A DNA stretch of 64,000 bases. Source: an uncultured Gammaproteobacteria bacterium. Its GTDB lineage: Bacteria; Patescibacteriota; Patescibacteriia; UBA1558; GWA2-36-10. Where the stretch lies: positions 86,334 to 150,333 of the forward strand of contig CAZWYP010000003.1 in NCBI GenBank assembly GCA_964638415.1, read 5' to 3'. Within the stretch, counting starts at the first letter, position 1. Every line of letters begins with the position of its first letter. The translations under genes and the position numbers were made by a program. The notes below the pieces were generated by a model that was not told where the DNA came from, searched no databases, and was given only the letters and a program-made list of their open reading frames with translations. Shown here one piece after another: positions 55,771 through 64,000 of the stretch.

Positions 55771-56568
55771 TTACTTATTAAGGATCTTCCCCCAAATTAA
55801 AATTAATTTTGGAGAAAAACTATTTAAATATTTTAATAAAATTGATTTATTACTAATTGGTTTTAATGCCCATTTTAGAGCTTTATCCATTTCTTTTTTA
55901 TATTGAGGATATTTAATATTAAATATCCGACGACAGTCTTTTAGATCACGCGTATAAGTACCGTCAACAGCGGTAGCAAAAGCGCCGCCCGCCCTTAAAA
56001 TATCCCTCATAATCCAAACACACCAGAATTCTAAAGGTTTTTTTGTAAAAAGAAACTCTTTCTTACCGACCAACAATTTTTTTAGATCATTAATATCTTT
56101 ATCAAAATGGGGATATAAATCATTAATTAAAGATTTGCCTGTGTGATAATTTTTTATTCTTTTTGACAAATTCTTTCCCCACAAACGAGCCGCACTTGTC
56201 TTGAGGTGAAACTTTAACATCCTATATTTTCCCTCATGCAATAATTCATTGACGGACAAAGTAGTCAAATCAAAAAACTCAACCTGTGAATATTTTTTTC
56301 TTAATTTTTTTGAAATTTCCACCGTCCACTTGAGACGTTCTGCTGATAATTTTTTTCTGGTGACGGCAATCATGTCGATATCAGAAATCATTTTCTTTGC
56401 TCTGCCTAAAGGAACACTTCCTCTGATGTAAATGCTTAAAATATCTTCCCCTAAATATTGCCTATAATACCCAATAATTTCATCAATAGCTTCACTATAA
56501 TATGAAGTAATCTTCTTCCTACTGGCTTGATTTACAATACAACCTTGTCTATTGACCTTATACATCAT
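55771..56568 (-). CDS. Nucleotidyltransferase-domain protein (Pol-beta superfamily; aminoglycoside-adenylyltransferase-like two-domain architecture)
   Basis: The 265-aa product has the motif IYIRGSVPLGRAKKMISDIDMIAV (GS…DxD) and a helical C-terminal domain. Confidence 0.5.
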   Translation of the reverse strand: MMYKVNRQGCIVNQASRKKITSYYSEAIDEIIGYYRQYLGEDILSIYIRGSVPLGRAKKMISDIDMIAVTRKKLSAERLKWTVEISKKLRKKYSQVEFFDLTTLSVNELLHEGKYRMLKFHLKTSAARLWGKNLSKRIKNYHTGKSLINDLYPHFDKDINDLKKLLVGKKEFLFTKKPLEFWCVWIMRDILRAGGAFATAVDGTYTRDLKDCRRIFNIKYPQYKKEMDKALKWALKPISNKSILLKYLNSFSPKLILIWGKILNK

Positions 56569-56580
56569 AAAATAACAATT

Positions 56581-58287
56581 CTACTCCGTAAGATAATGCA
56601 TTAATTCACTAAGTAAAACCAATTCAGTCTTTTCTTCCCAGCGTTTTTTCAATTCTGCACTTTTTTGCTCAATGGTTTTTTTACTGATCACTATACGTAA
56701 AGGAATGCCGATAAGATCAGCGTCGGCAAATTTTTCCCCGGCCGGTTTTTCCCGATCATCATATAAAACCTCTACATCTTTAGCAACCATTTCTTGATAT
56801 AGCTTGTCGGCCTCGTCATAAGCACCGTCCAAAGCAATTAGATGAACTCTAAACGGAGCCACTGTTTCCGGCCAAATGATACCTTTGGCGTCATGATACT
56901 TTTCTACTATTGCCGCCATGGTACGACCAACACCGATACCATAACAACCCATATAAAAAGGTTTTTCTTTACCGTCAATATCAATATATGATGCCCCTTT
57001 CATCTTATGAGAATAGTGATAACCAAGCTGAAAAATATTTCCAACTTCAATGCCCCGTTTTTCAATTAGTTGTTTCTTGCTTCCAGTAGACTCAAAACCT
57101 TCTTTAGCTAAAGCAATATCACCTTCAATGTCTGACTGATAATCACGATCAATATTGACGTTTAACAGATCAATATTTTTTTTGTTACTGCCACCGTAAG
57201 CATTGGCAATAGTTCGCAAAGAATCATCAGCCACAATAAGCAAATTAACCTTATTATCTATGTTATTTTTAATCTTAACCGGTGAGATGAAGCCCGGCTC
57301 GGAATTAATAGATTCCCTAATCTCATCATCCGTGGCGTGTCGCAAAGTTGTAGCGTGTATTAAATTTTTTAATTTAACTTCATTAACGTCTAAATCTCCC
57401 CTAATAATTGCTAAAATAAATCTATTCTGATCGTCAACAAAAAGAACATCTTTAATCTGTTGCCATAAAGGCAAATTATGAAACTTAACTCCATCCTCCA
57501 TAGTTACACCTCGTTCAGCTTTAATTTCAGTTAATTCCAATTGCTTGTCGTCTTTGTTTTTTATTTCTTTTTCAAACAGAACAACGTCCTCGTGTGCGGC
57601 ATAATCACCATTTTCAGTAACAAAAAATTTGCTTTCACCGATATCCGATTCAACTACAAATTCATGACAATATTCTCCCCCTATATAACCGTTATCCGAA
57701 GCTACGATGTAAGTTTTTAATCCCAAACGTTCAAAGATTTTCGTATAAACTTCCTTCATGCATTCATATTCTATCTTAAAATCAGCCTCATCTTTGTGAA
57801 AAGAATATCCATCCTTCATTATAAACTCACGAACACGCAACAATCCTCCTCTAGCTCTCAATTCATCGCGAAACTTGGGAGAAAATTGATAAAGATGAAA
57901 AGGCAGATCACGATAACTTAAAGTATATTGACGCACTAAATCAACAAACATCTCTTCCGCCGTACCACCTAAAGCAAACTCGGCTCCCCGACGATCTTTT
58001 ACTTTCATTAATTCAAACCCGGTAGTGTTGGTTCTGTTGGTTTCCTGCCATAACTCCAACGGATGTAAAATAGGCGTCACCATTTCCTGAGCACCGATGG
58101 CGTCCATTTCTTGTTTAATAACGGATATTATCTTCTGTTGCACTTTGTGACCAATCGGTAAAAAATAATAGCGACCCGCTACTGATTCACGAATAAAACC
58201 GCCTTGCTTTAGAAGTCGGGCGGAAACGATTTTTTCATCGTCTGATATTTGTTTAGTGGTTTTTAAAAAATAATGAGATAATCTCAT
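56581..58287 (-). CDS. proS: Prolyl-tRNA synthetase (native, low-GC copy)
   Basis: The 568-aa product is bacterial-type ProRS with an editing domain. Its composition matches the bulk genome. Confidence 0.9.
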   Translation of the reverse strand: MRLSHYFLKTTKQISDDEKIVSARLLKQGGFIRESVAGRYYFLPIGHKVQQKIISVIKQEMDAIGAQEMVTPILHPLELWQETNRTNTTGFELMKVKDRRGAEFALGGTAEEMFVDLVRQYTLSYRDLPFHLYQFSPKFRDELRARGGLLRVREFIMKDGYSFHKDEADFKIEYECMKEVYTKIFERLGLKTYIVASDNGYIGGEYCHEFVVESDIGESKFFVTENGDYAAHEDVVLFEKEIKNKDDKQLELTEIKAERGVTMEDGVKFHNLPLWQQIKDVLFVDDQNRFILAIIRGDLDVNEVKLKNLIHATTLRHATDDEIRESINSEPGFISPVKIKNNIDNKVNLLIVADDSLRTIANAYGGSNKKNIDLLNVNIDRDYQSDIEGDIALAKEGFESTGSKKQLIEKRGIEVGNIFQLGYHYSHKMKGASYIDIDGKEKPFYMGCYGIGVGRTMAAIVEKYHDAKGIIWPETVAPFRVHLIALDGAYDEADKLYQEMVAKDVEVLYDDREKPAGEKFADADLIGIPLRIVISKKTIEQKSAELKKRWEEKTELVLLSELMHYLTE

Positions 58288-58521: not shown

Positions 58522-59427
58522 ATGAAAAAAGCAGTGTTGTACGCCAGGGTGAGTTCGGCTCTCCAGGAAAAGGAAAGAACCATAGAAAGCCAGATTTTAG
58601 AGCTTAAAAATCAGATAAAAAAGTCAGGTAATATCTTGGTTCACGAATACGTGGATGACGGCTATTCCGGAGCAATGTTGTCCAGGCCCGGTTTAGACAA
58701 ATTAAGGCAGGACTTAAAAACCAATTTATTTGATACCATCTACTTTCATAATACCGACCGCATTGCCCGCGACGTTACTTACCAAAATATTATCATCGGA
58801 GAAATCCTTAATCACCAAAAACAGATAATAATAAACGGTGAGGACTATGTCCATAATCCAGAGAATAAATTTACCTTAACGGTTTTAGGAGCAGTAGCGG
58901 AACTTGAAAAAGCCAAAATCTTGGAACGCAGTATGAGAGGAAGACTGTATCGATTAAAACAGGGACAGTTATTGTCCCATGGCTATAATATCTACGGGTA
59001 TAATTATATTTACAAAACAGACACTACTCCTCCGGCTTATACTGTAAACTCCGAGGAAGCTCGAGTGGTTAACTATATCTTTAAGCTTTACGCTCAAGGT
59101 AAGATTAACTACCGGCAACTGGAAAAAAAGTTAGTGAAAGAAAAGATTCCACCCAGAAAAGGCAGAAAATGGAATTGGAGTCAGTTAAGATTAATGTTGC
59201 GAAACGAAACCTATACCGGCATCAGATATTTTAACACCACTACGGATAACAACGCTTTATTAAAATTCGGTCCCAGAGAGAAAACCATCAGGAGAATAAA
59301 AACGGACAGATCAACTTGGATTGGCATTAAAATCCCGGGAATAATATCCCGGGATTTATTTAATAAAGTCCAACATAGAATTAGCCATGAATTGGAGTTA
59401 TATAACAATAAGAAAAAATTAAGATGA
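58522..59427 (+). CDS. Large serine recombinase, truncated paralog (resolvase and recombinase domains only)
   Basis: The 301-aa product has the catalytic motif YARVSS at its N-terminus. It lacks the Zn-ribbon and coiled-coil regions present in the downstream paralog, and its stop overlaps the next start (ATGA). Confidence 0.75.
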   Translation: MKKAVLYARVSSALQEKERTIESQILELKNQIKKSGNILVHEYVDDGYSGAMLSRPGLDKLRQDLKTNLFDTIYFHNTDRIARDVTYQNIIIGEILNHQKQIIINGEDYVHNPENKFTLTVLGAVAELEKAKILERSMRGRLYRLKQGQLLSHGYNIYGYNYIYKTDTTPPAYTVNSEEARVVNYIFKLYAQGKINYRQLEKKLVKEKIPPRKGRKWNWSQLRLMLRNETYTGIRYFNTTTDNNALLKFGPREKTIRRIKTDRSTWIGIKIPGIISRDLFNKVQHRISHELELYNNKKKLR

Positions 59428-61022
59428 AAAAAGCCGTCCTCTACGCCCGGGTAAGTTCTAGCAGACAGGAAAAAGAAAAAACCATTGCCAGCCAAATCTC
59501 GGAACTGAAAAAACAAATCCAAGATAATGGAGATAGTTTAGTTAAAGAATACATAGACAATGGCTATTCTGGCGCTTTACTTGATCGGCCGGCTTTAAAT
59601 GAACTGCGGCAGGATTTAAAGTCAGATTTATTTGATACTATTTATTTTCTTAATACCGATAGGATTGCCCGGGAAGTAACTTATCAGACGATTATCATTG
59701 CCGAGATTTTAAGGTATAAAAAGCAAATAATTATCAACGGCAAGGATTATGTCAACAATCCGGAGAATAAGTTTACCTTAACCATTTTAGGAGCGGTTTC
59801 CGAATTGGAAAGAGCCAAGATAATTGAAAGAAGCTTGAGAGGTAAATTATATAAGTTAAAACAAGGTCAGCTGTTAAATAACGGCAGTAATATGTACGGG
59901 TATCGCTACATCAAGAAAAGCCGTCTCTCCCCGGCTAAGTTGGTAATTAACCCAACTGAAGCCAAAGTAATTAAATATCTCTTTTCCTCTTATGCTAAAG
60001 GCTTAAGTTGGAGTAAATTAATTCATTATTTGGAAGACAAAGGGATTAAGACTAAAAACGGCCAAAAGCTTTGGAATATTCCCAAATTAAAGTCGATCTT
60101 GGAAAATCATACCTATTACGGCTTAAAACACTTTAACCGAATTAAACATGATAAAACTGACGGTGGTATATCCAAATACGGCCGGAAAGTAATTAAAGAT
60201 AAAGCAGAATGGATCAGTATTAAAGTCCCGGCCATTATCCCTAAATCTTTATTTGATAAGGTTCAACTCAGGTTAAAAAACAATACCAAGGTTTACAGGA
60301 GAAAACCGGAAACGCAACTGCTTTCCGGTTTAATTGTCTGTGGGAATTGTCAGAGACGGTTTATAGCCTACCAGAGGTATTATAGGTATAGAACAAAGAC
60401 GGCAAATAAGGTGGTTCATAAGGTAGCTTATGTTTGCGGCAGACGAGCAAAAAACGTTATGCATTCCAAAAAATTAACTAAAGACTTATGTAAAAACCCG
60501 GAAATATCCGCCCGGGTAATTGAACCTGCTGTTTGGCAGATGATTACCGATACCCTGCTTAATCCCGACAAGCTACTCCTCTGCACTGATTATGTGAAAG
60601 ATAGGGTTAATAAAAAGCTGGAAAAACAAATAAATGTTATTGATAATAACATACTGGATTTAACCAATGAGAAAAAACAATGTTTAGATCGATATGCCAA
60701 AGGCAAAATAACCAGAACCCAATATTCTAAAAAATCTCAACAAACTGATAATGAGATTGAAAAGTTGAAAAACAAAAAAGACAAGCTAATTAAAAGCGTG
60801 CCGGCTTTGCACAAAAAATATATGATTGAGATAAGCGTTAAACAGTTTTGTGAAATAGCCAAAACCAGATTTGAACAAGCAAATGACTTTGAAACTAAAA
60901 GACAGTTTTTATTAGATTATATAGATAAGATTATCTATCTAAACAAAGAATTGACCTTATCCGGGTTAATTTTTGTTGATGGGGTTAATAAGATTAAATT
61001 TTATATTAAGAATGAGATTTAG
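59424..61022 (+). CDS. Large serine recombinase (integrase), full length
   Basis: The 532-aa product has YARVSSSRQ, a recombinase domain, a Zn-ribbon (CGNCQRRF…CGRR) and a C-terminal coiled-coil. Confidence 0.85.
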   Translation: MKKAVLYARVSSSRQEKEKTIASQISELKKQIQDNGDSLVKEYIDNGYSGALLDRPALNELRQDLKSDLFDTIYFLNTDRIAREVTYQTIIIAEILRYKKQIIINGKDYVNNPENKFTLTILGAVSELERAKIIERSLRGKLYKLKQGQLLNNGSNMYGYRYIKKSRLSPAKLVINPTEAKVIKYLFSSYAKGLSWSKLIHYLEDKGIKTKNGQKLWNIPKLKSILENHTYYGLKHFNRIKHDKTDGGISKYGRKVIKDKAEWISIKVPAIIPKSLFDKVQLRLKNNTKVYRRKPETQLLSGLIVCGNCQRRFIAYQRYYRYRTKTANKVVHKVAYVCGRRAKNVMHSKKLTKDLCKNPEISARVIEPAVWQMITDTLLNPDKLLLCTDYVKDRVNKKLEKQINVIDNNILDLTNEKKQCLDRYAKGKITRTQYSKKSQQTDNEIEKLKNKKDKLIKSVPALHKKYMIEISVKQFCEIAKTRFEQANDFETKRQFLLDYIDKIIYLNKELTLSGLIFVDGVNKIKFYIKNEI

Positions 61023-61581
61023 TATTTTTATTTAAAGCAGCAACAAATACTTGCTTAACATAATAATAAGCTCTTTCTTTTGACCTGTACCAAAACAATA
61101 TTATCAATGATATAGAAAATGCATGATATAAATATACACCTATATATTCTGGCAATAAAATCAAATAAATAATAAATGATGAGACTAAAATTACCCTAGA
61201 AAAAACATAACTTGCATTCATATTACTAATAATTTCATCCTGTCCTACTAATCTTGAAGAAACCTCAAATATCTTTTTTTCAGAGCAATCTTTACCATTA
61301 GTAATGATGCCTTTTAATTCATCGACTTCATTAAATCTTATTCGCCCACACCCTTTTCCTTTTAAAAATTGAACAGCTGGTTCACCTCCCCAAGTCCAAT
61401 ATATTATACCCTCTAGCCAACCACTAATAGAATTAACTAAATAGCCAATAACATAAGCTAAGGCCGTCGCAGGTAAAGCTGGTATGCTACTCTGACTTAA
61501 ATCCAATCTATACATTATACCCATAAGGATAAGAAAACCTGGGACTAAAATAGAAAGTAAATTATATAAATTAAAATTCAT
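61006..61581 (-). CDS. Hypothetical membrane protein (4 TM)
   Basis: The 191-aa product is the last gene of the AT-rich operon. Confidence 0.45.
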   Translation of the reverse strand: MNFNLYNLLSILVPGFLILMGIMYRLDLSQSSIPALPATALAYVIGYLVNSISGWLEGIIYWTWGGEPAVQFLKGKGCGRIRFNEVDELKGIITNGKDCSEKKIFEVSSRLVGQDEIISNMNASYVFSRVILVSSFIIYLILLPEYIGVYLYHAFSISLIILFWYRSKERAYYYVKQVFVAALNKNTKSHS

Positions 61582-61585
61582 AATT

Positions 61586-62374
61586 TTATATACTTAATTG
61601 ATATTTATCTATATTCTTTTTCAACAAAAGTAAACCCTTAAAAACTTCTGGGGGACAATTACTACAAGATTCTAATTTACCCCAACCACAGACACATGCC
61701 CAACGCCCTTTAATCCTTTTTTTGGATAAATAATTAGCAATTTCACTCCAGACAATATGGTCCAAATTATTATTATTCAAATATCTCAAAACTTCTATAC
61801 ATTTCAAGGTTAACTCTTTACAATCATTTTTTTGTGATTTTTCATAATAGTTTACTAATATCCCTAAACAACCATGAGGAAAAACGCCCCTAGGCCACTT
61901 CTTATTATCTCTAAAAAAACTTTGATCATAGAAGAAAGGAATGATTATCCCACAAAGAAAATCACGAAAAGGAATATCATTATCTTCATCCAAATATCCA
62001 GCCACACAAGCCGTACCATTATGGGGATTAATATGCATATCTGGGCTTTGCTTAATTTTTCCTCCTACTTCTTTAACTAATCTATAAACATTATCCGCCG
62101 ACAAATTTATCTCTATATCATATTCATCCTGTATCACATTGTCTTTATCACCAATGCTGGATATATCCTTATAAATATTATAATCCTTAGTACTAGGCTC
62201 AAATGAGGCAACGAATTTAAGCTTACCCTTTAGATAATTATCTCTATTAATCTCTTCAAAATATAGATCGGGGAAAAAATTATTTACAAGATCTTTATCT
62301 TCTTGTTTAACTAGCATAAGGATAATATGGCCTACTCTTAAATCCCGAATCTTTAGTTGAGTAAAGTAAACCAT
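61586..62374 (-). CDS. Cys-rich hypothetical protein (262 aa)
   Basis: The product has HINPHNGTACVAGY and a C-terminal CVCGWGKLESCSNCPP Zn-ribbon-like motif. The gene overlaps the upstream MBL gene; an alternative start at 62317 gives an 11-nt overlap. Confidence 0.4.
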   Translation of the reverse strand: MVYFTQLKIRDLRVGHIILMLVKQEDKDLVNNFFPDLYFEEINRDNYLKGKLKFVASFEPSTKDYNIYKDISSIGDKDNVIQDEYDIEINLSADNVYRLVKEVGGKIKQSPDMHINPHNGTACVAGYLDEDNDIPFRDFLCGIIIPFFYDQSFFRDNKKWPRGVFPHGCLGILVNYYEKSQKNDCKELTLKCIEVLRYLNNNNLDHIVWSEIANYLSKKRIKGRWACVCGWGKLESCSNCPPEVFKGLLLLKKNIDKYQLSI

Positions 62375-63338
62375 TATCTACTCCACTAACATCTTTATTA
62401 TCACCTTCATCTGAAATGTGCAAATTACCACTACTATCTATATCTACAATAACGTTTTTATTTTTGTCTCCTAAATGATATATATTTTCCGACTTTACAT
62501 ATTTTTTATATATATCCATAGCATCATCATGTGGATGATCGTGCGGACTGTCCTTTTGTTTTGGTGAGCTAATTATTAGATACTTTGGCTCTATCTCTTT
62601 TATATGATCCTCATAAATATCCTTATCATCTTCGCTATCTTTAAAAAATGTTCTGGATCCATGATGAGAAGCGCTTAAAATATCACTTTTTAAAACACCC
62701 TTATGGTATTTGGTTATATAATCTTTCCAAGCTGTCTTATCTGAATCTCCAGTAAGTAAAACGCTTTTATCATTATAAGTGAATTTAATAACACCGCACT
62801 GTTCGTGAATTCTTTTTCTCCTCTCTTCCGGTTTCTCTCCATCTATATCATCGCACACATATTTTGCTGGTGATAATACTTGAAAATCTATATCACCTAT
62901 TTTTTTAATAACTTTTGAACTCTCCTCTCTGTCTGTATGCAAAACATTCAAATCTCTAGTACCTCTTAAATAGAAAACATTTTTCTCACCTACTTTCTTA
63001 ATAACTGCTTCAAGTTCTTTGAAGCTATCCTCGTGTTCTTTACTTGGTTTATGCCCAGAGTGCCATACTTCCTTAATCAAATCTTTAATATCTTTTATTC
63101 CTTTTACGTGATCATTATGTGGGTGGGTATTAATAAAGACAAGATTATTATCTCCTATCTCTTTCAAATAATCCTTTAACAAAACTCCGCCTCTATCTTC
63201 GTCTATATTGGCATCCACTAAAATATAATCATGGCTATCACCGTCTGGCACTATTAATAATGTTGATTCTCCTTGACCAACATAAAGAAAAATAATCCTG
63301 AATATACCCTTATCGGGCATTAATAAATTGCTTTTCAT
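62307..63338 (-). CDS. MBL-fold metallo-hydrolase, ComEC C-terminal-domain-like
   Basis: The 343-aa product has LYVGQGESTLL, HPHNDHVKG (HxHxDH) and SASHHGSRT motifs, as in the ComEC/Rec2 beta-lactamase-like domain. Confidence 0.65.
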   Translation of the reverse strand: MKSNLLMPDKGIFRIIFLYVGQGESTLLIVPDGDSHDYILVDANIDEDRGGVLLKDYLKEIGDNNLVFINTHPHNDHVKGIKDIKDLIKEVWHSGHKPSKEHEDSFKELEAVIKKVGEKNVFYLRGTRDLNVLHTDREESSKVIKKIGDIDFQVLSPAKYVCDDIDGEKPEERRKRIHEQCGVIKFTYNDKSVLLTGDSDKTAWKDYITKYHKGVLKSDILSASHHGSRTFFKDSEDDKDIYEDHIKEIEPKYLIISSPKQKDSPHDHPHDDAMDIYKKYVKSENIYHLGDKNKNVIVDIDSSGNLHISDEGDNKDVSGVDNGLLYSTKDSGFKSRPYYPYAS

Positions 63339-63354
63339 AATAATATAATTAATT

Positions 63355-63864
63355 TTAAATAAAGATATTTTTGTTCTCCTTTATTATAAATATATATTCG
63401 TGAACTCCTCTTTTTTCGCCCTTTATTATCCGGGCTTTTAGCTTACCTTCTTTAATCATTTTTCTAGCAGTAGCTGGATGAATACCAAATCTATCTTTTA
63501 ATTCCCACATGGCATACCAACTATCCCTATTTTTACAAATATAGCCCGGAATCACCTTTGTGTCTATTGCTCTTTGGCAGGTTAAGCATTTAGGGCCATA
63601 TTTATCCCACCAGCCATTTTTACTAGTTATAGGAGAGTGACAAATAAGACAATTATATGTAACCCCTTCCTCTATAGGAAAACCATTTGGCTCTTTCTTT
63701 AAACGAATTTGTTTACTTTTAATATTTGTATCAACTTTGATTAACGTCTGAAAAAAACCTAATAGGTTATGTGCAGATTCTTCAGCAGCCTTATATGATA
63801 TCTCCTTACCATAAACTTTTTTATACACCTTTTGAAATTCTTTTATGTCTTTTTCTGATAGCAT
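63355..63864 (-). CDS. Zn-ribbon protein with a C-terminal HTH-like segment
   Basis: The 169-aa product has CLICH…CLTCQ and an HTH-like IHPATARKMIKEGKLKARII. Confidence 0.4.
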   Translation of the reverse strand: MLSEKDIKEFQKVYKKVYGKEISYKAAEESAHNLLGFFQTLIKVDTNIKSKQIRLKKEPNGFPIEEGVTYNCLICHSPITSKNGWWDKYGPKCLTCQRAIDTKVIPGYICKNRDSWYAMWELKDRFGIHPATARKMIKEGKLKARIIKGEKRGVHEYIFIIKENKNIFI

Positions 63865-63873
63865 AAATTAATA

Positions 63874-64000
63874 TCTCCAAAAACCAATCCAGATTAAAAA
63901 TATCTTATTCAGGCGATAAATTGGATAAGCAATTATTCCAAACCAAACACCATCAATTACTTGTGGTCCAAAAATAAAATATAAAATAGTTACTAATAAA
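63874..64000 (-). CDS. Partial hydrophobic ORF (C-terminal end) continuing beyond the window, first visible gene of the AT-rich operon
   Basis: The reverse frame reads …LLVTILYFIFGPQVIDGVWFGIIAYPIYRLNKIFLIWIGFWRY* and ends 6 nt before the next ATG. Confidence 0.35.

Follow-up and report, generated by a model that had tools for sequence, protein, structure and literature searches.

Operons in which an enzyme of the metallo-β-lactamase (MBL) fold is paired with a protein containing a ubiquitin-conjugating (E2) domain have been described as operon type '6a', usually consisting of two genes (Iyer, Burroughs and Aravind, 2006; PMC1779556). According to two later papers that cite the work (PMC13276650; PMC11601596), the 6A-MBL system has been validated as antiphage in Pseudomonas aeruginosa (van den Berg et al., 2024), and it is also listed among the jumbo-phage-active antiphage systems of this species. 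The Corbett laboratory has used a grouping, 'Type II CBASS/Pycsar/MBL' (CBASS, an antiphage signaling system based on cyclic oligonucleotides), in which a Cap2-type enzyme conjugates the signaling enzyme itself. In the E2-CBASS of Serratia marcescens (CdnG-E2; PDB 8hsb; bioRxiv 10.1101/2022.05.25.493364; PMC12948482), the tail of the cGAS, ...Y405-G406-E407, is cut after G406, the product is joined to C101 of the E2 and then to K159, and a G406A change is tolerated; tail cleavage and the thioester both require C101 and H87, and H152 modulates the interconversion of the bonds. Here, these systems are compared with a locus in a stretch of 64,000 nucleotides (hereafter the window, meaning the whole stretch analyzed) from an uncultured member of the Patescibacteriota (GenBank assembly GCA_964638415.1, contig CAZWYP010000003.1, positions 86,334 to 150,333). 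The last part of the window, 61006-64000, holds four complete minus-strand open reading frames (ORFs) and a fifth running off the window end, and three of these genes, encoding an MBL hydrolase that is probably a nuclease, a stand-alone E2, and a membrane protein, are read with moderate confidence as a conflict module, most likely antiphage, that is the E2-only counterpart of 6A-MBL and works by a tail mechanism like that of Serratia. The strength of this reading differs between its parts: the identification of the components is very probably correct, a defense role is likely by analogy with the described systems, and the specific covalent form of the tail mechanism, again drawn by analogy, is put forward only tentatively.

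The relationship between the E2-only MBL loci and those encoding an E2-E1-JAB fusion mirrors that between E2-CBASS and E1E2/JAB-CBASS, and the module looks like an undescribed relative of 6A-MBL and E2-CBASS that is a member of neither, not like a new kind of system. Full-text searches combining E2-CBASS with lactamase or MBL terms, in a collection that covered few subscription papers, returned no description of an E2-only MBL system. The components of the module and their key residues are located as follows.

61006-61581, minus strand: membrane protein ('C2' family) of 191 amino acids with about four transmembrane (TM) helices
61586-62317, minus strand: stand-alone E2 of the UBC fold, 243 amino acids, with an E2 domain at the N-terminus, a helical extension, and a zinc knuckle at the C-terminus (the longest ORF reaches 62374, 262 amino acids)
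61655-61696, minus strand: SEC-C-like zinc knuckle C208-x-C210...C218-x-x-C221 at the E2 C-terminus, with C208 and C221 near-invariant
61874-61876, minus strand: His148 of the E2, the third invariant active-site residue
62006-62035, minus strand: predicted E2 active-site segment HINPHNGTAC, from His95 to the catalytic Cys104
62307-63338, minus strand: ComEC-type MBL-fold metallo-hydrolase of 343 amino acids, whose catalytic core and C-terminal tail are conserved and whose linker varies
62310-62333, minus strand: C-terminal tail of the MBL, RPYYPYAS, the proposed site of E2 recognition and processing
63108-63125, minus strand: metal-binding motif HPHNDH of the MBL, residues 72-77, of which the two positions other than H72, H74, D76, and H77 vary

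The MBL gives a single Pfam match (Lactamase_B, 8e-07), and its assignment to the ComEC type, already made in the preliminary description of this DNA from its letters and ORFs, is upheld by a match to TIGR00361 ComEC_Rec2 (1.4e-11; 43 bits against a cut-off of 190 bits, model positions 436-652) and by its closest solved structures, which are the MBL domains of ComEC (PDB 9ic4 and 30bt). Its family is large and conserved to an unusual degree, with 913 homologues, many of them 50-69% identical across phyla, and in an alignment of 16 sequences (A2) the residues H72, H74, D76, H77, H93, D198, H225, and H226 are invariant. The C-terminal MBL domain of ComEC/Rec2 is thus its best characterized relative, with the HxHxDH motif and the downstream His and Asp ligands kept, and the enzyme is probably a nuclease, as judged from these sequence features. 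It differs from ComEC/Rec2 in being stand-alone and predicted soluble, without the TM and OB domains of competence proteins, and in having a putative regulatory tail and ties to E2 machinery and defense islands. Matches to PHROG families, one of them labeled 'tail protein', are explained by shared MBL domains and were not counted as evidence for a prophage.

In comparison with 6A-MBL, the locus likewise has a gene for a specialized stand-alone MBL directly upstream of one whose product contains a Cap2-type E2; the C-terminal tail of the MBL is conserved, and its subfamily is usually paired with an E2-E1-JAB fusion. In contrast, the window encodes an E2 of 243 amino acids only, with no ThiF/E1 or JAB match in the locus; both proteins score below the NCBIfam cut-offs (NF058523/NF058524); the tail is RPYYPYAS instead of ending in Gly; and the module includes the conserved four-helix membrane protein, whereas type 6a was described as usually two genes (PMC1779556). 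Against NF058524 ('anti-phage 6A-MBL system MBL-fold protein') the enzyme scores 55.2 bits over residues 127-285, below the cut-off of 220 bits, and its cousins linked to E1-E2-JAB fusions score about the same.

The Cys-rich protein encoded downstream is, on the evidence of its sequence, an E2 of the E2-CBASS lineage with a predicted Cys-His-His active site. It matches seven 'E2' models of PADLOC, which belong to CBASS (best 1.5e-24), and has the UBC/E2 fold. An exhaustive profile search yielded 1522 cluster representatives, and in an alignment of 60 diverse relatives (A3) only Gly31, His95, Cys104, and His148 are invariant, giving the pattern of a Cys with one His upstream and a second downstream that is known from the Serratia E2. 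The residues C101, H87, and H152 of that enzyme were matched to C104, H95, and H148 by order and spacing and not by a residue-level alignment, as profile searches of PDB sequences with the E2 alignments reached neither the Serratia E2 (8hsb) nor Cap2. The tentative suggestion in the preliminary description that part of this protein recalls the HPN-Cys active site of an E2 was therefore correct, the segment in question being HINPHNGTAC, and the C-terminal Cys cluster noted there is a SEC-C-like zinc knuckle, with a family consensus CxCGS..RxCH that is nearly invariant among the 60 relatives and weak matches to the C-terminal zinc motif of SecA (E ~0.04). The length of 262 amino acids had to be revised to 243, with the start at 62317, on the basis of the homologue alignment and the gene call in a metagenome contig, L001, that overlaps the window end; an exact look-up found the 243-residue form on record and no record of the 262-residue form, which supports the downstream start. 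The start codon so assigned is an ATG embedded in the Tyr-Ala codons of the MBL tail, where the two genes overlap.

The likeness to E2-CBASS extends from profile, fold, and the Cys-His-His active site to gene order, with the E2 gene directly downstream of, and overlapping, the gene for its presumed substrate, which has a short conserved C-terminal tail; furthermore, the closest relatives of the E2 lie in genuine operons with a CD-NTase (cGAS/DncV-like nucleotidyltransferase). The differences are that the partner is an MBL hydrolase and not a CD-NTase, with no SAVED, TM-CBASS, or other cyclic-nucleotide effector; that the E2 is about 85 amino acids longer than that of Serratia, owing to the helical and SEC-C extension; and that the [KR]P-aromatic tails of its clade are without the conserved Gly of the Serratia cGAS. 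None of the seven genes in the block gave a Pfam match to SMODS or SAVED. In the Bil/Bub systems a ubiquitin-like beta-grasp protein and an E1 would be expected, and Pfam, PADLOC, and NCBIfam found none among the genes of L001, nor a dedicated peptidase; the window E2 also has a catalytic Cys, unlike the Ser-based E2 of Bub.

The conserved unit was defined by a census of related loci (numbered with the prefix L), for which 80 genome loci were gathered with the MBL alignment, 46 metagenome loci with the E2 alignment, and a single match from a viral collection; neighboring genes were clustered, and the counts refer to 83 related loci. The MBL is followed by an E2-E1-JAB fusion of about 785 amino acids in 62 of the 83 loci, and this fusion matches the E1-E2 and JAB models of PADLOC and scores 141 bits against NF058523 ('6A-MBL cap2_3'), with a cut-off of 320 bits. 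In eight loci, all of them metagenome-assembled genomes (MAGs) of Patescibacteria (Paceibacterota, Gracilibacteria, Peribacteria, and UBA6220), a stand-alone E2 of the window family takes the place of the fusion; the MBL and E2 pair is found in L002/L003, L006-L008, L010, L011, L086, L090, and L132. A second, more distant E2-only clade likewise replaces the fusion beside an MBL in Fulvivirga (L043) and in cultured Runella slithyformis, where the genes lie on the conjugative plasmid pRUNSL03 (NC_015694) and the RefSeq names are generic: an 'MBL fold metallo-hydrolase', a 'SEC-C domain-containing protein', and a 'hypothetical protein'. In a Moraniibacteriota MAG (Moranbacteria; L009, 1451-3652), the MBL is fused, without an E2, to an AGS-C-like C-terminal domain (PADLOC Cyclase C-terminus, 2.7e-22) that CBASS cyclases otherwise carry, and the gene for the four-helix membrane protein lies upstream of the fusion. 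According to this census, the conserved unit is not five genes but an MBL and a TM protein with an exchangeable E2-type regulator; the five genes had been taken for one unit in the preliminary description, and only the MBL, the E2, and the 191-residue membrane protein recur together.

The membrane protein family, with members of about 190-230 amino acids, is present in 59 of the 83 MBL loci, including all eight of the E2-only loci, and adjoins the pair of MBL and partner either just before or just after it. In the metagenome and viral scans all three MBL loci had it, whereas about 36 E2-CBASS loci did not, so that its presence tracks the MBL and not the E2. R129 is invariant in the family, and Y6, N122, and Y125 are nearly so.

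The partners of the E2 are exchanged in nature. The gene immediately upstream of the E2 encodes an MBL in two metagenome loci and in the single match from the viral collection, and in most other metagenome loci it encodes a protein of about 320 amino acids, which in 25 of 28 cases is a SMODS/CD-NTase with intact GS and DxD motifs. E2 relatives adjoin SMODS genes in L004 and L005 as well, and the E2 of L004 is 49% identical to one linked to an MBL. In a crude neighbor-joining tree, a group of E2s linked to CD-NTases is nested in the clade linked to MBLs.

The C-terminal tails show a corresponding pattern. Among 120 MBL homologues there are two tail classes, one ending ...TSRIDxKPMG, give or take a few extra residues, and the other ...[KR]P-[YF]-x-x-[YL]-x-x; the KPMG tail occurs with an E2-E1-JAB partner in 51 of 52 loci and the Tyr/Phe tail with an E2-only partner in all nine loci of its kind. 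The Runella MBL ends in KPWQRG, and CD-NTases of metagenome loci (L091-L129) that lie beside a long E2 clade of about 240-260 amino acids end in ...P-x-K-P-W-C-N-V. The cyclase beside the E2 of L004 ends in SRPYFSHES. Because this CD-NTase-linked group is nested in the MBL-linked E2 clade and the tail type is common to both, the tail follows the E2 lineage and not the enzyme to which it is attached, as would be expected if the tail were the site of E2 recognition and processing.

The KPWCNV tail has no terminal Gly and contains a conserved Cys, whereas the Serratia cGAS ends in ...YGE, which suggests a different tail chemistry inside E2-CBASS itself. Fusion L009 represents a third regulatory architecture around the pair of MBL and membrane protein. 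The MBLs of L018, L070, L076, and L083 end in ...RRYG, ...ARYA, ...GRSAY, or ...GGRYAQ and adjoin proteins of 415-654 amino acids that fall outside the E2-E1-JAB cluster and may be further partner types. The gene order in L002 and L006 is S24 peptidase, a second MBL of 370 amino acids, membrane protein, MBL, and E2 (6594-11783 in L002), and in L002 a GIY-YIG protein is encoded after the E2. On the Runella plasmid (NC_015694 33700-43062; L133), the genes for MBL, E2, and membrane protein come first, in that order, and after them two further MBL genes, of which the first (the second MBL of the plasmid) lies with an ORF of 136 amino acids resembling a membrane protein and the other (the third) with a serine protease of 1363 amino acids.

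The setting of the loci is consistent with defense. In the window, the module sits in a low-GC island of defense-type genes next to serine recombinases. Genes for Mrr, type IIS restriction-modification, and a peptidase of the S24 repressor type lie beside the module in L002, AAA_21 and RloB genes in L008 and L010, and a dcm/MvaI restriction-modification system on the Runella plasmid. On the 'viral' contig L132, an S24 peptidase gene and type III restriction-modification genes are found in place of phage genes, and for this reason carriage of the module by a phage is not claimed. The idea in the preliminary description of an anti-phage cargo next to an integrative element is borne out as far as the defense-type island beside recombinases is concerned, and a defense role is plausible; the novelty of the system had been overstated, as the combination of an MBL with an E2-containing protein, which was not recognized there, is that of operon type '6a' (PMC1779556) and the E2 belongs to the E2-CBASS family.

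If the module acts as the Serratia system does, its E2 would bind the MBL tail RPYYPYAS and clip it near its end, with cleavage predicted after Ala342, and the MBL would then be held as a thioester on Cys104 and subsequently as an isopeptide adduct or in chains. Capture by the E2 may prime the hydrolase or restrain it until infection; once activated, the MBL would degrade nucleic acid, with the membrane protein as its anchor or as a co-effector. The tail class co-varies with the partner and is common to the MBLs and the CD-NTases of the window E2 clade, and cleavage and linkage of the tail are proposed on the Serratia model.

A number of observations weigh against the module as interpreted above. 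The scores lie far below the 6A-MBL cut-offs (55 against 220 bits for the MBL and 141 against 320 bits for the fusion), so that an antiphage role would be transferred from a sister family. The window tail ends in Y-A-S, with Y-G-D, Y-G-SK, or Y-A-N in relatives, and is without the Gly needed by the Serratia E2, although Ala is tolerated there; in some relatives, Asp or Glu occupies the Gly-equivalent position, and the chemistry may thus differ from that of the Serratia E2, or the E2 may only bind the tail. The AlphaFold2 model of the E2 has a mean predicted local distance difference test score (pLDDT) of 83.7, but the active-site loop (residues 90-110) is its least confident part, with a pLDDT of about 60, and Foldseek of the model against the PDB gave insignificant matches only. 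Similarly, the membrane protein has no Pfam family match and a poor structure model, with fold matches to non-specific helical bundles. Lastly, the operon structure and regulation of the block are deduced from gene spacing.

The alternative that survives best, though unlikely, is a signaling system in which the MBL plays the CD-NTase role, is regulated by the E2, and responds to infection, and in which its product or state switches on the membrane protein as the true effector, leading to membrane disruption or abortive infection. TM effectors occur in many CBASS operons. Three parallel architectures place the MBL where a CD-NTase would otherwise stand (beside E2-E1-JAB, beside a lone E2, and in the AGS-C fusion of L009), and these parallels make the alternative a serious one; a small TM protein is also the constant companion of the MBL, and close relatives of the E2 switch between CD-NTase and MBL partners. 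However, the MBL enzymes are hydrolases whose nearest characterized relatives are the nuclease domains of ComEC, the membrane protein shows no recognizable ligand-sensing domain, and a defense signal generated by a hydrolase in this way was not found in the literature searched. A more elaborate version, somewhat less likely still, holds that the MBL is a functional replacement of the CD-NTase, an infection sensor with a portable [KR]P-aromatic tail that is handled by a Gly-independent E2 and gates a four-helix membrane effector, the MBL and the membrane protein being the ancient core and the regulators (E2, E2-E1-JAB, or AGS-C) interchangeable. Such a pathway would signal or defend by means of a hydrolase, with no cyclase involved.

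It is improbable that the module has a role outside defense, as a ComEC-like nuclease with a membrane partner that handles incoming DNA for transformation or for transfer of the element. The TM and MBL parts of ComEC are fused, and a separate TM partner beside a ComEC-type MBL resembles this arrangement; moreover, the module adjoins recombinases in the window and lies on a conjugative plasmid in Runella. Nevertheless, competence and OB domains are both lacking, coupling of the module to regulators of the CBASS-type E2 or E2-E1-JAB kind is obligatory, its neighbors are restriction-modification, Mrr, Dsr1-like, and AAA_21/RloB genes, and its sister family has been reported as antiphage. Finally, a single new system with all five genes, or more, as its components, possibly including the 255-residue and Dsr1-like genes farther upstream, is very improbable, given that the common strand, the spacing of 3-16 nt, and a GC content that is evenly low across 7 kb or more are set against the lack of homologues of the 169-, 124-, and 255-residue proteins in 84 related loci, the recurrence of the MBL, the E2, and the membrane protein in many contexts, and the routine head-to-tail packing of unrelated systems in defense islands.

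As an E2-only counterpart of 6A-MBL, the module fills a predicted architecture, E2-only regulation of a non-cyclase enzyme, that appears to be undescribed in the searchable literature and in current annotation. In this natural swap, closely related E2s serve a CD-NTase or an MBL, and the tail stays with the E2 clade and not with the enzyme; this suggests that the tail is a recognition tag of the E2 that can be transferred, and it provides a handle on E2 substrate specificity. In addition, ubiquitin-like chemistry is considered to need a C-terminal Gly, which the tails do not have, and their chemistry may be a different one. The conserved membrane protein, which is tied to the MBL across phyla and receives no mention in the accessible portion of the 6A-MBL literature, may be key to the mechanism of 6A-MBL. 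The host range includes the Patescibacteria (candidate phyla radiation, CPR), and cultured copies are available in Runella slithyformis (plasmid NC_015694, 33700-36151) for the E2-only form and in Paenibacillus polymyxa M1 (plasmid NC_017543, 104198-108317) for the E1-E2-JAB form.

The remaining genes of the block and the adjacent recombinases are located as follows.

58522-59427, plus strand: truncated serine recombinase paralogue of 301 amino acids (Pfam Resolvase, Recombinase)
59424-61022, plus strand: complete large serine recombinase of 532 amino acids (Pfam Resolvase, Recombinase, Zn_ribbon_recom)
63355-63864, minus strand: zinc-ribbon and helix-turn-helix (HTH) protein of 169 amino acids (Pfam HTH_17 4.9e-4, below the cut-off)
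63868-64000, minus strand: 3' part of the gene for a membrane protein of 124 amino acids with hydrophobic segments, cut by the window end (full gene at L001 3603-3977)

The genes of the block are separated by 4, 16, and 3 nt where the MBL and E2 genes do not overlap, and the ORF coordinates and Pfam confirm the earlier statement that tightly coupled genes run convergent to tandem serine recombinases, the complete recombinase overlapping the block by 17 nt. The GC content per 1-kb bin of the block (0.291, 0.314, and 0.309) is indeed the lowest of the window, which is at about 0.40 elsewhere, and the stated figure of below 30% was only roughly right (0.29-0.31). Low GC (0.28-0.32) spans the entire same-strand block, including its extension in L001, and ends at the recombinases. 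The recombinase genes share an ATGA stop/start overlap and a 300-nt stretch that is 72% identical between the two, and the zinc-ribbon and coiled-coil region of the complete protein is missing from its paralogue; the pair, which lies beside proS, looks like a duplicated and partly decayed integrase pair and probably marks the end of a mobile element. No tRNA gene was found near the recombinases, no convincing att-like repeats were found inside the 12.3-kb L001 contig, and promoter and terminator scans of the block gave matches at chance level only.

Contig L001 (Logan SRR10064596; 12.3 kb), which was retrieved by exact-protein look-up, is identical to the window end and reaches 4.5 kb beyond it. 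It carries three more same-strand genes, encoding the 124-residue membrane protein, a zinc-ribbon protein of 255 amino acids, and a helical protein of 905 amino acids or more (L001 2-2818, about 1.4-4.2 kb past the window end, on the strand of the block). The C-terminal half of the helical protein matches the PADLOC profile of Dsr1, defense-associated sirtuin 1 (E 8.5e-20, positions 730-1198 of 1227). Neither SIR2 nor another Pfam domain was found in the available part, the N-terminus of which may be cut by the contig end, and the protein could act as a sensor in the manner of Dsr1 but have another effector domain, or none.

In 84 other loci, no homologue of the 169-, 124-, or 255-residue protein was found, with the exception of a partial likeness of the zinc-ribbon/HTH protein, whose N-terminal 43 amino acids are 37% identical to an ORF of 52 amino acids (L004 7856-8014) located directly upstream of an E2-CBASS operon (SAVED, CD-NTase, and E2) on an unrelated metagenome contig. 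This N-terminus may be a small module common to regulators of E2-containing systems, and the zinc-ribbon/HTH protein may be a local transcriptional regulator outside the conserved module. On the far side of the recombinases, a minus-strand ORF of 265 amino acids (55771-56568) lies downstream of proS (56581-58287) and contains the segment IYIRGSVPLGRAKKMISDIDMIAV, which by eye looks like the GS...DxD signature of nucleotidyltransferases.

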